From an uncultured Chloroflexia bacterium (GTDB lineage Bacteria > Chloroflexota > UBA6077 > JACCZL01): a stretch of DNA of 64,000 nucleotides. The translations under genes and the position numbers were made by a program. The stretch lies in assembly GCA_963765765.1 (NCBI GenBank), contig CAVXYC010000025.1:32001-96000 (forward strand), in the 5' to 3' direction. This document shows positions 219-4,598 of this stretch, piece by piece (positions within the stretch are counted from its first letter, which is position 1; every line of letters starts with the position of its first letter). Under the pieces are notes generated by a model. The model was given only the letters and a program-made list of their open reading frames with translations. It had not been told where the DNA came from and did not search any database.

Positions 219-524
219 CTAATGAGATGCTTCGACCTGGAAGTCGCCCGCGTCGGGATGTGGTTCGCACATGGCGCCGTCGGGGATCCGCTTGGCGCGG
301 CAGTGGAGAATATCGCCGGGCGCCGCTGAGCCGAGAAGGTCGCGTCGCACGCTGAATCCCATCGTCTCGCCCACGTGGGAAGAGAGCAGATCGGCACGAC
401 CTTCCACCGGCGCAGCGGCGTCGATTCGCACGTTCAGGAGGTCATAGTCGCCCAGCGAGGAGTGAGGCGCGCGCGCCAGGATCTCTCCGTCAATCCGCGT
501 GAGATTCTCGATAACCTGAACCAT
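219..524 (-). CDS. Small hypothetical protein (beta-rich, possibly OB-fold-like), last gene of the ATP-grasp cluster
   Basis: 101-aa ORF starting 10 bp after the ATP-grasp stop; protein-like composition. Confidence 0.65.
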   Translation of the reverse strand: MVQVIENLTRIDGEILARAPHSSLGDYDLLNVRIDAAAPVEGRADLLSSHVGETMGFSVRRDLLGSAAPGDILHCRAKRIPDGAMCEPHPDAGDFQVEASH

Positions 525-534
525 CGTACTGCCT

Positions 535-1449
535 TCAGGGCTTCTGCGTGCCGCTCGCGAGGAGCGTGATCAACGCTCGACTGATCGGCAAGCCGGTCTC
601 CCTCTCAAAGTAAGTATAGGCAGGCATGGGATTGACTTCGAAGCACACCCACTGACCCGAAGGACTGCGACGCAGGTCTATCCCGCAGAACGGGAGTCGC
701 AGCCGTTGACTGAGCAGCAGGCAACGATCGGACACATCGAGAGTCAAGTCGATGGGCGATAGATCAGCCGCGTTACCGTGATAATGCGCGTATCGGTAAT
801 CAGTCGCTTCGCTGGTGATAGCGCAGGCAAACACCTGTTTACCGATAACATGAACGCGGACATCTTCGCCCGATACCATCTGCTGGAGCTGGACTGGTAG
901 ATCTCGCAGCCGATCCAGGCGGGCAGCCTGCAATTCATCGAGCTCCGTGACGATCGATCGAACTCCACTGATCGACTTGAAGATAACCCGCTCGTGATCA
1001 CGCCAGAACGCCCGAGCCTCTTCGGGGCTGCTGGTCACAAGTGTCTCGGGTACATCGAATCCCGCTGCACCAATGAGCTGCGCTTGATACGGCTTGGACC
1101 CGTTAGAGTCCATGTCTGACGGGCGGTTGACCACCAGAGTCGGCGCCAGCTCGAGCCATTCGAGAAACAGCTCATGAAAAGTCTCAGAACGCGCGCGAGC
1201 CAGCGTATTCGCGTGGCTCCGCGGGATATCAAGCGGCCGAGCGTAGATTCCGGAGATCGCGTCGAGCTCAACGCTACGACCATCTATCGTAAGCACGCCC
1301 GTTGCGCCATGGTCCGTGACGCTTACGAGCAGGTCCGCGCGGTCCAGTGCGCATTGATCCAGCCAGATCAGATCCTGCTCCAGTTCGCGAGCGGTTTCAA
1401 TGGCCTTTTGCAGGGGCGGATCGTCGCCGCGGCCGTAGAACAGAATCAA
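535..1449 (-). CDS. ATP-grasp ligase, RimK / MvdD (graspetide synthetase)-like
   Basis: Motifs VVNRP..SKPYQ, VPETLVT, IFKSISG, LQQMV..DVRVHV, DYRY, GIDL, FEVNP and TGLPISRAL. Start placed at TTG (LILFYG); the ORF is open upstream to 1641. Confidence 0.9.
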   Translation of the reverse strand: MILFYGRGDDPPLQKAIETARELEQDLIWLDQCALDRADLLVSVTDHGATGVLTIDGRSVELDAISGIYARPLDIPRSHANTLARARSETFHELFLEWLELAPTLVVNRPSDMDSNGSKPYQAQLIGAAGFDVPETLVTSSPEEARAFWRDHERVIFKSISGVRSIVTELDELQAARLDRLRDLPVQLQQMVSGEDVRVHVIGKQVFACAITSEATDYRYAHYHGNAADLSPIDLTLDVSDRCLLLSQRLRLPFCGIDLRRSPSGQWVCFEVNPMPAYTYFERETGLPISRALITLLASGTQKP

Positions 1450-1640
1450 GAGCCGGGCACCTCGGAGGGGTGCCAGCCAGGTGTATGTAGTGATCGCTTC
1501 AGCGCTTTTTGGGCGATAACGAGAAGCGAGCGTGGCGATGCGACGGGCGACATCAGAAGCTGCCCGGTAGCAGCGAGCGGTCGCGGGGCGCATGCCCGTC
1601 TGCAATCTCGGAAAAAGTGCTGAAGCGCCCACTACGAGCA

Positions 1641-2525
1641 TCAGGGCGTCCGCATCTGAGCCGTGCGTGGGGAGGATGGCAATGGAACAGGCGTCTCTTT
1701 AACTGGCACGTGGACGCCGATCCCATTCCAGCCAGCGAGCAAATTCACCACTGCATCCACTGCCCAACTCTCCAGAAGCGGCGGCATCGCATCCACTGCA
1801 CGCACAACGAGACCCGCACTGGATTCGATGAATCGGATTTCGAGCAGGCGGCAGTCCGCCAGACGCGCTAGCGCCAGGCACGGGCCTTCGTAGCGGCCGG
1901 TGAGCGGCCCAACGGCGTGATCACCCGCGATCAGCACACTGCCTGCGCTACGACAGGACTCGTCGACTTGAAGCGCCGCGGGCGCGGGGCCCCGTACGCC
2001 GCCCGGCCATTGAAAACCATCGATGCGCTCGCCGCGTTCTGGTAATGAAAGCATGCGACCGGCGGTTGCGCGTGCGTTATGCGCAACCGGTAAGCCGACG
2101 CTCGCTGCGAGAGATAACCAGCCGCGTTCAGTGAGTGGTCCACGACATTGGCCGCGAGGGCCCGAAGGATTCACTACGCGGGGGCCGAAGCTGAAGAGCC
2201 AGCTCGCTACCAGCGCCTGTAGCTCTGCCCCCGCGTAGTCGCGATCTTTGGCCGTGGCTCGATGGAACCGAGGCACCGGCAAGTACTGCAGTCGATTGAA
2301 GACGCAGCTCACATTTTCCGATGAGACGACGGTTCCGTTAGGCAGCTTGATGTGCGTGCTCGCCTGCCCCGCGGCAGTGACTCGATGGGACCACGCGGCT
2401 AGTCCCAACGATTCGGGTCTGGCGAGAATCACCGACTCGCGGCCACTGTGCTCAGCAAGCCGAGAGGCCACGGCGCTGGCCCCGGCGTCGTGTCCATGGG
2501 CCAGCACCAGAACGGGTCTCGTCAC
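1641..2525 (-). CDS. Degenerate ATP-grasp-like protein (pre-ATP-grasp region retained, catalytic motifs absent)
   Basis: GTG start overlaps the reconstructed protease TGA (GTGA). Contains VFNRL...DRDYAGAELQALVASWL...VVNP...AASVGLPV but no KxxQ or ExN motif. Confidence 0.68.
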   Translation of the reverse strand: MTRPVLVLAHGHDAGASAVASRLAEHSGRESVILARPESLGLAAWSHRVTAAGQASTHIKLPNGTVVSSENVSCVFNRLQYLPVPRFHRATAKDRDYAGAELQALVASWLFSFGPRVVNPSGPRGQCRGPLTERGWLSLAASVGLPVAHNARATAGRMLSLPERGERIDGFQWPGGVRGPAPAALQVDESCRSAGSVLIAGDHAVGPLTGRYEGPCLALARLADCRLLEIRFIESSAGLVVRAVDAMPPLLESWAVDAVVNLLAGWNGIGVHVPVKETPVPLPSSPRTAQMRTP

Positions 2526-4457
2526 GAGCTCGGCGGGGTATCGTACTGACGCTTCGCGTCGCGATCGCCGGTCGGCGATGCGTTCCTGGATCGATTGATC
2601 GCCTCCGTCATAGTCGGGACCACCGGCCAGGTCGGGACGAAGACTGCTATCGATAAACGGCACTCCTGGGGCTCCCAGCCCTAACGCCTCTTCGAGGACT
2701 CGCACGCGCTCCTCGAGCGTGGCAAGTGGATCGGCTCCGCTGCCGTAGCCTGGATCCTGAAATTCACCAGGTCCGGGTTGATCGCTGGACCAGAAGAATC
2801 GCGGCCACTCGCGCGAGTCCTTCCGATCCTTGCTTTCCTTCCAGGGCTCCTTGGAGTCCTTGATGTTGTCTTTCCGATCTTTGGAATCCTTCGTATCTTT
2901 TGTGGCTTCTTTGCGGCTGTCCTTTTGATCCTTGGAATCCTTGGAGTCTTTGCTAGCCTCCTTGCGGCTGTCCTTTTGATCCTTGAGATCCTTCGCTTCT
3001 TTGTTGGGCTCCTTGGTGGCGTCTTTCTGATCCTTGGTGTCTTTGGCCACGGCCTTAGTGGTCACATTGACAGTGGCGGTCATCGTGGCGCCCGACGCGG
3101 AGATGTCAGTGACAGACACATTCGTGACTGCGCCAGCGTAGGAATTGGAGCTCGGTGTAGACGCGCCGGTGAGCGCGGTGACATTAGCGCTTCCCGGGAA
3201 TGGATCGCCTGCGTCGCCGCGATTGCGATCCAGCTCCAGATCGCGCTTTCCATCTGCCTGGACGAGCCCCACCTGGTAATGGTTCTCGTCAGTGTTGCCG
3301 GGCTGGTTTTCATCGATGTGCCAGATCAGCAGGCCGGCGGCTGGAAGCTGGGCGTCGTAGCCGGTTTTCTGACGATTCTCCATGAGGAAATACTCAGAGC
3401 CCGACCCGCCGTTGGTCCACAGTCGGTGCACGGCGTGGCTGTTTTTGACATCCGGGATGCTGATGATCCCATTCGAGGTCACATTTGACACGGTGGCCCA
3501 ACCCTGGTTCACCTTGCACCAGGCTGAAGGGTGCGCAGGAACGTCACCACCGCCATTCCAGGAGCCGCCGCCCATGAGGCACCAGTTTCCGACACCCTCC
3601 GAGGTGTAGTCAGTGTCGTAGAGGTCGGGGAAGCCGAACAGCAGATGACCCAGCTCATGCGCGCAGACGCCGATGCGCGAGTCTTCCGGCACAGTGAGAT
3701 AGGCGAAGATCTTCGTGCCATCCGCGTTGAACGAGCTGGGAAGCGTCCATTTATGCGACCAGATGTCGCCGGAGTTGCCGGTCTGCTCGCCGCCGCTCCC
3801 AGAATGGATCACGATGAAGGCATCAACGTACCCGTTGCCGTCGTTGTCGTACGGACCGAAGTTCACATCGGGGTTGGCTGCCACCGCGGCATCCTTGGCC
3901 ATGATATTCGCGCGCGGCGCGCCCGTGGGCTTGCCGATGCCGAAGTTGTTGTTGGCGTACCAGGCCAGCGTTTGAGGCAGTCGATACGGTCCCTTGACCT
4001 CCCCAACAATGTCCACCAGACCGCCAGTGACCTCTGCGAAGTACTCTTTCACGCTCCCGTGCGGTAACACGCCGTTAGAGAAGAAGAGATCGTTGAAATG
4101 CGCCGCGGTCTCTGTCATCGGTTTGTCCGAGTACTCGGCCAGTACCACGATGACACGCACCGCGCCGCGGAGCGGCGCGCGATCTAGAGCGGCGCGTCTG
4201 ATGACATTCTGGCTGGTGCCCGCGGGATACTCGTCTGGCGGGATGATCACTCCGTCATTAAAGCCCGGCCAACGGGGCTGGCGAGCCAGACCAAACGCCT
4301 GAGCCGATGCCGAGCGCGATCGCGCCCGCTCGAGCTGCGTTTTCATCTGCTGCTTCAGCTCCGGACTCGGAGCGACAGCGCAGAAGTCCGACCAAACCGC
4401 GATGGCCGGTCGGCCAGCTGAGCAGTGTTCTTCCGATGGATGTGAATTGCTCGCCAC
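2522..4457 (-). CDS. M6 family (immune inhibitor A-like) zinc metalloprotease with C-terminal K(D/E)x repeat tail; 1-bp frameshift near 2572
   Basis: HELGHLLFGFPDLY zincin motif, YDNDGNGYVD Ca-loop, IWSH, LMGGGSW, HPSAWCK, YFLMENRQ. GGGGAG RBS before GTG at 4457. The shifted frame ends GDRDAKRQYDTPPSS-stop. Confidence 0.92.
2808..3045 (-). repeat. Coding low-complexity repeat: about 23 K(D/E)x triplets with a 17-aa higher-order unit
   Basis: KDTKDQKDATKEPNKEAKDLKDQKDSRKEASKDSKDSKDQKDSRKEATKDTKDSKDRKDNIKDSKEPWKESKDRKDS. Confidence 0.95.
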
Positions 4458-4598
4458 AGTGATCTCCCCCGATGTCTCTGGCACGCGTCTCTGCGGGTCT
4501 ATCTCTTTTGTGGTCCGGAAAGGTTCATCCCGTGCATGCTACGCTGATGTTATTGCTGTGAAATCAGCCATTTGGGGGAGAATCCGCGGTGAATCTGA

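Follow-up and report, generated by a model that had tools for sequence, protein, structure and literature searches.

A portable Lys-Asp/Glu repeat module at the end of an M6 protease as candidate substrate of a neighbouring graspetide-type ATP-grasp ligase

Overview of the gene cluster

The present study concerns a gene cluster in a 64,000-nucleotide stretch of DNA from an uncultured Chloroflexia bacterium (GenBank assembly GCA_963765765.1, contig CAVXYC010000025.1, positions 32,001–96,000); this whole stretch is called the window here, and all coordinates refer to it. Four coding regions, all of them real, form a tightly coupled operon on the minus strand and specify an M6 metalloprotease with a long C-terminal extension, a degenerate ATP-grasp protein, an intact ATP-grasp ligase of the graspetide type and a small OB-fold protein. 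The extension—the tail of the protease—holds a run of lysines, each followed directly by aspartate or glutamate (K[DE] run), and is probably the substrate of the ligase, with a follower-type recognition sequence behind the run and Lys-Asp/Glu isopeptides within it. A first-pass annotation, made from the sequence alone, had already taken the tail for the ligase's substrate. This is still the best reading, because K[DE]-repeat neighbours of the ligase are near-constant, the tail travels with the ligase pair and the ligase groups with the graspetide macrocyclases; it is an inference, as are the kind of bond and the part played by the protease. What the sequence comparisons show directly are the genes present, the conservation and portability of the module and the kinship of the ligase.

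Conservation of the cluster

The scan of one genome per species delivered 74 loci, of which 66 have at least 2.9 kb upstream of the ligase gene. Among these 66, the M6 protease is encoded in 62 and the degenerate ATP-grasp protein in 63, the exceptions being L052 and L077, both decayed, as well as L055 and L061. The small protein is found on the same strand in 59 of all 74 loci, and most gene starts share 4 nucleotides (nt) with the stop of the gene before. The loci come from Nitrospirota, Actinomycetota, Pseudomonadota, Gemmatimonadota, Chloroflexota, Cyanobacteriota, Myxococcota, Bacteroidota and others. At least eight K[DE] pairs are present in 61 of the 63 tails, so that ligases living mostly without neighbours rich in Lys, Asp and Glu repeats—the outcome named by the first-pass annotation as fatal to its own proposal—are not what the loci exhibit.

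Outside the cluster, no family of open reading frames (ORFs) of at least 40 amino acid residues (aa) is present in more than 7 of the 74 loci, except for one composition-driven shadow-frame cluster, and so neither another precursor candidate nor an exporter is conserved. A separate short precursor, which was not evident in the window alone, is thus not conserved among ORFs of that size across the loci either.

The tail module of the M6 protease

In the window, the repeat spans 76 aa, and Asp or Glu follows 23 of its 23 lysines, the shuffles of the same region (n = 5000) giving a mean of 7.0 such pairs, a standard deviation of 1.8 and a maximum of 14; a tandem repeat of period 51 lies at 2876–3037. 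The protease had been described as ending in a tail of Lys, Asp, Glu, Ser and Thr. The repeat is indeed far beyond chance, but it is not the C-terminus, since about 95 more residues lie beyond it, comprising a Gly/Pro linker, an amphipathic helix, the motif PFIDSSLRPDL and a conserved C-terminus. The same plan is shared by all intact M6 tails: the K[DE] run, a Gly/Pro-rich linker, the helix 'LExRxAALExxxG', the motif '(E)PFIGxxLRPDLxGGP' and the terminal 'LxxRMAxGDxxAKRxFDTxPP'. The I, R, P and L of the motif, as well as K and D of the C-terminus, are invariant over 60 tails, and the motif itself is present in 60 of the 63 tails, the three without it being frame-broken.

The repeats of the 60 relatives obey a strict grammar. 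Lysine has Asp or Glu as its next residue in 95% of cases (family median), the ratio of acids to lysines, (D+E)/K, is 1.02 (r 0.98), and the lysines are spaced by 3 (536 cases) or 4 residues (382 cases). With regard to a given Lys, the acids occupy position +1 in 95% and positions +4/+5 in 57%/43%, positions +2 and +3 accounting for only 2–3%. As far as the richness of the tail in Ser and Thr is concerned, it was rightly noticed in the window, but the family median of both residues in the repeat is 3%; it is therefore specific to the lineage of the window, Lys is the only conserved nucleophile, and esters of Ser/Thr are unlikely as the conserved link.

The AlphaFold model of P0004—a close relative of the window protease—leaves the tail unpacked on the catalytic domain and predicts it to be disordered, with a predicted local distance difference test score (pLDDT) of 30–45, reaching about 60 in the helix (residues 577–591) and about 75 in the last 25 residues. 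It may be added that most M6 tails begin with 'VxVxCGK' at the junction of the protease and the repeat (in the window about 3045–3070; alignment A4), the lineage of the window having Thr there, and that the trypsin-type proteins described below also have a Cys just before the repeat.

Portability of the tail module

The profile of the last 80 tail residues, searched against 1.84 billion representatives with a threshold E-value of 0.001, matched 117 proteins, 30 of which were inspected and 17 scanned with Pfam. Many of the matches are fragments of M6 proteases. The module was also found in two trypsin-like proteins (P0232 and P0221, both with a GDSGS stretch; Trypsin_2 scoring 22.6 bits in P0232, under the cut-off of 27.6), at the end of a subtilase fragment (P0237; Peptidase_S8 with 25.7 bits vs a cut-off of 21.8) and on other N-terminal parts without any Pfam domain (P0197 and P0217). 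All these carriers, the M6 ones included, possess the K[DE] repeats, the helix and 'FIxxx(L/E)RPDL', their last residues being variable.

A metagenome scan with P0232 yielded 6 loci. Two of them (L083 and L086) encode a trypsin-like protease with the tail, then the degenerate ATP-grasp protein (E 3e-38 and 9e-44) and then the ligase (E 7e-112 and 6e-114); in L087, a different N-terminal domain precedes the tail and both ATP-grasp genes. The contig of L088 stops within the degenerate ATP-grasp gene, and those of L084 and L085 are too short to show the downstream genes. The trypsin-like proteases of L083, L085, L086 and L088 contain two modules of K[DE] repeat plus helix with a domain of about 170 aa between them, the FIxxxxRPDL motif being present only after the second one.

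The module exists without a protease, too. In the complete genome of Archangium minus, a 226-aa protein consisting of the tail module only—with K[DE] repeats, the helix, 'HFIDPQLRPNL' and '...AKQAKDAKD'—is encoded directly upstream of the degenerate ATP-grasp protein and the ligase; it has no Pfam domain, and there is no protease at this locus. The gene ahead of the degenerate one in L061 codes for a protein of 208 aa that has 'SFIDPAERP' and a short K[DE] run. The tail module is thus portable and accompanies the ligase pair irrespective of what, if anything, it is joined to, and so the constant partners are the K[DE] run and the motif, not the protease and not the extreme C-terminus.

This portability bears on an extension of the idea of Makarova et al. 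(2022; PMC8939145), in which the tail is no more than a tether holding the protease at the ATP-grasp complex, and what the ligase modifies are fragments that the protease has cut from other cellular proteins. It would accommodate unrelated protease families replacing each other, the helix and motif do resemble a binding element, and the part of that survey at hand proposes that the peptidases supply peptides from other proteins. The Archangium locus, however, has the tail and the ligase pair without anything to be tethered that could cut, docking needs no strict 1:1 K[DE] unit, and sister precursors in the portion of the published table available (Carter et al. 2026; PMC13097080) unite the same motif with K/E/D repeats in small peptides. 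Mere docking is therefore considered improbable, and the tail as the substrate remains preferred.

With regard to evolution, the ligase tree comes from a quick, unfinished search, with the rows from 9 truncated or decayed loci left out; it pairs the window ligase with that of a metagenome-assembled genome (MAG) of Nitrospiraceae (97 in the Shimodaira-Hasegawa-like approximate likelihood ratio test) and interleaves the phyla. The labels of the N-terminal domains cluster weakly on it (4 changes, 3 being the least possible), and no order of events is claimed.

The ATP-grasp ligase and its degenerate paralogue

The best NCBIfam models for the window ligase are three ATP-grasp ribosomal peptide maturases (TIGR04187 with E 2.9e-37, MvdD with 1.5e-20 and MvdC with 4.9e-19). 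Over the full length, the profile of the ligase family matches in the PDB the graspetide synthetase PsnB (2.3e-38), an MvdD-like enzyme (2.1e-25), MdnC (1.4e-24), MdnB (4.2e-23), CdnC and AMdnB (to 8e-21), RimK being matched by the C-terminal half only (profile positions 119–303; 6.8e-15). The score for the RimK family model TIGR00768 (rimK_fam), 66.3 bits, also stays below its cut-off of 143.4. Judged by these sequence comparisons, the ligase groups with the graspetide macrocyclases and not with RimK; the cluster thereby has a ligase of the MvdC/MvdD/PsnB clade, as is expected of a graspetide cluster. The ligase shares every invariant column of the 33-sequence alignment (A6). Its homologues have about 300 aa and start with 'MILFYG'; the counterpart of this start in the window is the TTG at 1449, preceded by GAGG, which supports the intact ATP-grasp gene in the limits proposed by the first-pass annotation.

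The position of RimK is also relevant to the possibility that the K[DE] run is an unmodified polyampholyte or a single-helix spacer, and that the ligase has the conserved extreme C-terminus (D...K...D) as its sole target or extends it in the manner of RimK. The kinship with macrocyclases and the low score for the RimK model argue against it, and so does the C-terminal piece itself, which is not the same from one protease type to another; L061 and several stand-alone forms do without it, but no form does without the K[DE] run and the motif. On the other hand, the invariant K and D fall within the last 15 residues of the M6-type tails, the last 25 residues are those modelled with a moderate pLDDT, and the ratio of lysines to acids fits charge neutrality. 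Taken together, a mere spacer is regarded as quite improbable.

The second gene was annotated as a degenerate ATP-grasp, a view corroborated at the profile level: the comparison of its family with that of the ligase by hhalign (34 vs 16 sequences) resulted in a probability of 95% and E 3.1e-8 over 243 columns. The N- and C-terminal parts are aligned, and the stretch KSxSGxRS...QxxVxGxDVRVHV of the ligase is unmatched, which means that the central ATP-binding domain with the Mg/ATP ligands has no counterpart. The kinship is seen only profile to profile, BLASTP of the degenerate protein against the ligase having given nothing (E 0.54). Neither did its profile match anything in the PDB by sequence, nor did residues 654–947 of P0001 match any ATP-grasp model of Pfam or NCBIfam. 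The prediction of a complex of the ligase (A6) with the last 81 tail residues (A2), done without controls, scored 0.01 vs a mark of 0.32 and is evidence neither for nor against their contact.

The small OB-fold protein

The 101-aa protein has no match in Pfam or NCBIfam. Its model is a compact OB barrel (pLDDT 95.6), the fold of which matches generic OB proteins only: the best VIA hit is of the PriB/SSB type (Z 8.1), with many ties, and the best Foldseek E-value is 1.2e-3. TIMP-1 is one of the matches (Z 7.1), but among so many ties the role of a metalloprotease inhibitor cannot be read from it.

This protein could be imagined as the true substrate or precursor, since it is conserved beside the ligase in the majority of the loci counted above, possesses a conserved N-terminal E-N pair and is listed by RODEO as 'precursor' in several group 32 clusters in the part of the table available (Carter et al. 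2026; PMC13097080). It is, however, a compact fold, it is missing from 15 of the 74 loci and from the trypsin-type, Archangium and L061 loci, and in some genomes (P0092 and L008) it is fused to the C-terminus of the ligase. A substrate role is thus very unlikely; an accessory role fits better, and the fusion to the ligase suits an accessory domain. In the Nakamurella locus L010 (7944–8252), the homologue of the small protein was seen on the opposite strand.

Relation to known systems

The first-pass annotation spoke of a candidate new system, which was overstated. Makarova et al. (2022; PMC8939145) described a branch 8 of ligases, including those from Streptomyces (304 aa), Cellulomonas, Nakamurella and Fibrisoma/Spirosoma, linked to 'peptidases ... 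of several unrelated families' and to a 'truncated ATP-grasp ... catalytically inactive'; in the part of the paper at hand, no precursor was reported for this branch and substrates encoded elsewhere were suggested. In the survey by Carter et al. (2026; PMC13097080), equally represented here by a part of it, graspetide group 32 is uncharacterised and has 'diverse families of neighbouring proteases'. The automated precursor table for this group contains unrelated small ORFs and the OB-fold protein besides ORFs with K[DE] repeats and 'FIxxxxRP', some of the latter standing alone and others being truncated by the end of their contig. The Streptomyces bobili entry and a stretch of the small protein from the Streptomyces locus L014 have nearly the same sequence, so that group 32, as far as the accessible table goes, is the family of the window. 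The cluster shares with branch 8 and group 32 the ligase of about 300 aa, the truncated inactive ATP-grasp, the neighbouring peptidases of unrelated families and the taxa. The system is thus a known, yet uncharacterised group, and some K[DE]-rich ORFs had already been listed as predicted precursors.

The same table (Carter et al. 2026; PMC13097080) gives, among the entries available, ungrouped precursors and one of group 39 with an N-terminal 'FIxxxLRPDL', followed in the ungrouped ones by GKE/GKD repeats; these support the motif as a recognition sequence and the Lys/acid repeats as a core. Literature searches, which took in the Carter and Makarova surveys in part, returned no published statement of the module as the protease's own C-terminal extension, nor of a graspetide precursor fused to a protease. 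The protease-borne, portable and strictly K[DE] module therefore appears to be undescribed in the literature examined.

The closest solved relatives of the ligase over its full length are the synthetases PsnB (plesiocin) and MdnB/MdnC (microviridin). Both these systems combine a leader motif with a repetitive core and install links from side chain to side chain. There, the precursor is a small peptide of its own, the leader is N-terminal and the links are Thr/Ser-Asp/Glu esters. The precursor candidate of the window—K[DE] repeat, helix and FIxxxLRPDL—is instead fused to a protease, although stand-alone forms exist; its core precedes the recognition motif, and its nucleophiles are almost exclusively Lys. 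A closer parallel with regard to the bond is MyxF of the myxomiditides, in the part of the study available: there, ATP-grasp ligases place Lys-Glu lactams in series along (KxxE)n repeats, and an ATP-grasp inactive alone depends on partner ligases (Li et al. 2026; PMC12848669). The spacing is, however, different—KxxE (i, i+3) in a small microviridin-type precursor as opposed to acids at +1 and +4/+5 and almost never at +3—and the second ATP-grasp of the window lacks the ATP-binding part. Finally, RimK, the poly-Glu ligase of ribosomal protein S6, has the ATP-grasp fold and acts on a protein C-terminus, but only the C-terminal half of the ligase aligns with it and the tail does not end in Glu.

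Proposed mechanism and its weighing

Based on the above results, the following course of events may be proposed. The substrate would not be a separate small peptide but a portable C-terminal module, here borne by a cytoplasmic M6 protease and composed of strict K-[D/E] units spaced by 3 or 4 residues, a Gly/Pro linker, an amphipathic helix, the 'FIxxx(L/E)RPxL' motif and a short C-terminal piece. The helix and the motif would be bound as a follower-type recognition sequence by the intact ATP-grasp, the truncated paralogue being probably a non-catalytic partner and the OB-fold protein an accessory one. Using ATP, the ligase would then join Lys amines to side-chain carboxyls of Asp/Glu (isopeptide or lactam links) along the repeat, and the attached protease would either release the modified tail or keep it as an appendage.

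Several observations weigh against this proposal. The window ligase remains under the curated cut-offs of all three maturase models, scoring 128.5 vs 350 bits for TIGR04187 (GRASP_SAV_5884). The tail has no match in Pfam or NCBIfam. A 1:1 ratio of Lys to acids is also expected of a charge-neutral spacer, and the proposed mechanism has no explanation for the last 25 residues, which are strongly conserved, with K and D invariant, and differ between the protease types. The MyxF-type KxxE spacing is nearly absent in the tails (3% of D/E at +3). The automated group 32 precursor calls, to the extent that the table was accessible, are heterogeneous, comprising the OB protein and random-looking ORFs (Carter et al. 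2026; PMC13097080). Moreover, no exporter is conserved nearby among the ORFs of at least 40 aa in the 74 loci, which is unusual for a secreted ribosomally synthesised and post-translationally modified peptide. To our knowledge, there is also no characterised graspetide with adjacent K-[D/E] pairs.

The M6 protease

The annotation of the first gene as an M6 protease with an intact HExxH was confirmed. The window domain exceeds the cut-offs of both family models, scoring 249.7 bits vs 110.8 for TIGR03296 and 85.1 bits vs 22 (E 6.8e-24) for PF05547, and the zinc-binding motif reads HELGH; the protein is thus a peptidase of the M6 (InhA-like) family. The N-terminus contains no classical signal peptide by inspection, in agreement with the first-pass annotation, its most hydrophobic 12-mer being AIAVWSDFCAVA. 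From immune inhibitor A (InhA) and other M6 peptidases, with which it shares the catalytic domain and HExxH, the window protease differs by having no evident signal peptide and by the extension of about 170 aa, which is absent from every Pfam and NCBIfam model.

The two closest relatives are P0004 and P0005 with 644 and 625 aa, respectively; the former, 89% identical over the matched part, begins at the position of the window residue V10. Its AlphaFold model (41 sequences) has a pLDDT mostly of 80–97 over the catalytic domain, and the search of the P0004 sequence against the PDB yielded nothing useful, no solved structure being matched. It should be mentioned that the N-terminus of the protease contains the conserved element 'FCAVAPSPEL' (window about 4380–4410, residues 26–35; alignment A4), in which the Cys is nearly invariant and one Pro invariant. 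The cysteine switch is a latency device of other metalloproteases, and by analogy the element could be a latency element.

Gene order and the frame break at position 2572

The coordinates of all features are summarised in Table 1. ORFs were called with translation table 11, and as assembled, there are just three of them on the minus strand of the window: 947 aa (1641–4484), 368 aa (535–1641) and 101 aa (219–524). The co-oriented run of four genes recognised at first is correct as to the coding regions, their order and strand, but in the assembly one extra base at 2572 joins the protease and the degenerate ATP-grasp into a single ORF of 947 aa.

Table 1 Coordinates of the features of the cluster in the window
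Feature	Position	Strand	Remark
M6 metalloprotease gene with C-terminal extension, as in relatives	2522..4457	-	GTG start at 4457; stop 2524-2522 reached only without the extra base at 2572
M6 catalytic domain, residues 113-389	3318..4148	-	TIGR03296 E 5.1e-74
HELGH zinc-binding motif	3645..3659	-	H267, E268 and H271 invariant in 41 aligned proteases
K[DE] repeat, 76 aa, 23 Lys	2817..3044	-	Shuffle test
Amphipathic helix DPLATLEERVRVLEEALG	2679..2732	-	Family consensus LExRxAALExxxG
PFIDSSLRPDL motif, then Gly-Gly	2628..2660	-	Candidate recognition ('follower') sequence
Conserved protease C-terminus '...GDRDAKRQYDTPPSS'	2525..2590	-	Readable only in the shifted frame; ORF 2522-2680
Extra base joining the protease frame to the next gene	2572..2572	.	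Missing from 2/2 spanning contigs
Degenerate ATP-grasp	1641..2525	-	GTG start overlaps the protease stop (GTGA); central ATP-binding part missing
Spacer between degenerate and intact ATP-grasp	1450..1640	-	4-nt overlap instead in most relatives
Intact graspetide-type ATP-grasp ligase, about 304 aa	535..1449	-	TTG start
Small OB-fold protein, 101 aa	219..524	-	Fused to the ligase C-terminus in some genomes

The closest relatives P0004 and P0005 end with '...GDRDAKRQYDTPPSS' and '...GDRDAKLEFDNMPRS', and the window encodes '...TGDRDAKRQYDTPPSS*' in another frame (ORF 2522–2680). On the genome of the window, the tail profile matches at this locus only, split over two frames, its positions 59–79 matching 2528–2590; in the corrected frame, the stop at 2524–2522 overlaps the GTG start of the next gene at 2525–2523. 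No sequencing run contained at least half of the sampled words of the stretch (best share 0.32), and the contigs obtained are short. Two near-identical soil-metagenome contigs span the site (runs X3 and X5, from two soil studies; 95–99% alike) and both lack one base at 2572; a third one begins at 2573 and does not span it. The ancestral state is therefore that of four genes, as the spanning contigs lack the base and the C-terminus of the relatives is kept in the other frame. The extra base is either private to the strain of the window or an assembly error.

That the 947-aa fusion of protease and ATP-grasp is a real and functional product in the organism of the window is accordingly unlikely. 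The window does read through as given, and the inserted base is not in a homopolymer; the C-terminus of the relatives is, however, perfectly kept in the other frame, the base is missing from both contigs just mentioned, and the genes are separate in 60 of the 63 family members, the remaining three being frame-broken MAG loci. In the MAG loci L035, L062 and L074, too, the reading frame is broken or fused along the protease tail and the ATP-grasp genes, probably because of indel errors.

Between the stop of the degenerate ATP-grasp and the start of the ligase, the window has a spacer of about 190 nt, nearly all relatives having a 4-nt overlap at this place, and the degenerate protein carries about 30 extra C-terminal residues (1641–1730). 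The operon is surrounded by genes for DUF427, a Kelch protein, a luciferase-like monooxygenase, a glyoxalase, a protein of the metallo-beta-lactamase fold and a Gmad2/LysM protein, none of which is conserved with the cluster in the loci compared. The last of these (L003 11599–12270, minus strand, just outside the window start; Pfam E 1.2e-19 for Gmad2 and 5.9e-9 for LysM) is located directly downstream of the small OB-fold protein and is likewise not conserved in the other loci.

Biological significance

The lack of a conserved exporter and the existence of protease-free loci speak for an independent function of the modified module. Every Lys of the run has an acid at +1 and at +4 or +5, and i,i+4 is the geometry that chemists choose for lactam staples of helices. 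One may tentatively imagine—although this goes further than the substrate role and is rather unlikely in its entirety—that the module is a protein-level device and not the precursor of a secreted natural product: the ATP-grasp would write a ladder of Lys-Asp/Glu isopeptide staples along the K[DE] run, turning it from a floppy polyampholyte into a rigid, protease-resistant covalent rod that could be attached to any N-terminal domain or made alone, and that would control where or when the protease acts.

The two published surveys, as represented here by parts of them, left a widespread group of ligases without a substrate, one having no precursor and the other mixed automated calls (Makarova et al. 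2022, PMC8939145; Carter et al. 2026, PMC13097080). The strict K[DE] module with its motif, always beside the ligase pair and attached to unrelated proteases or standing alone, is a concrete substrate candidate for this group. If the tail is modified, the graspetide chemistry would be extended to a protein-borne, follower-directed and Lys-only core, and multiply stapled peptides might become accessible by enzymatic means.

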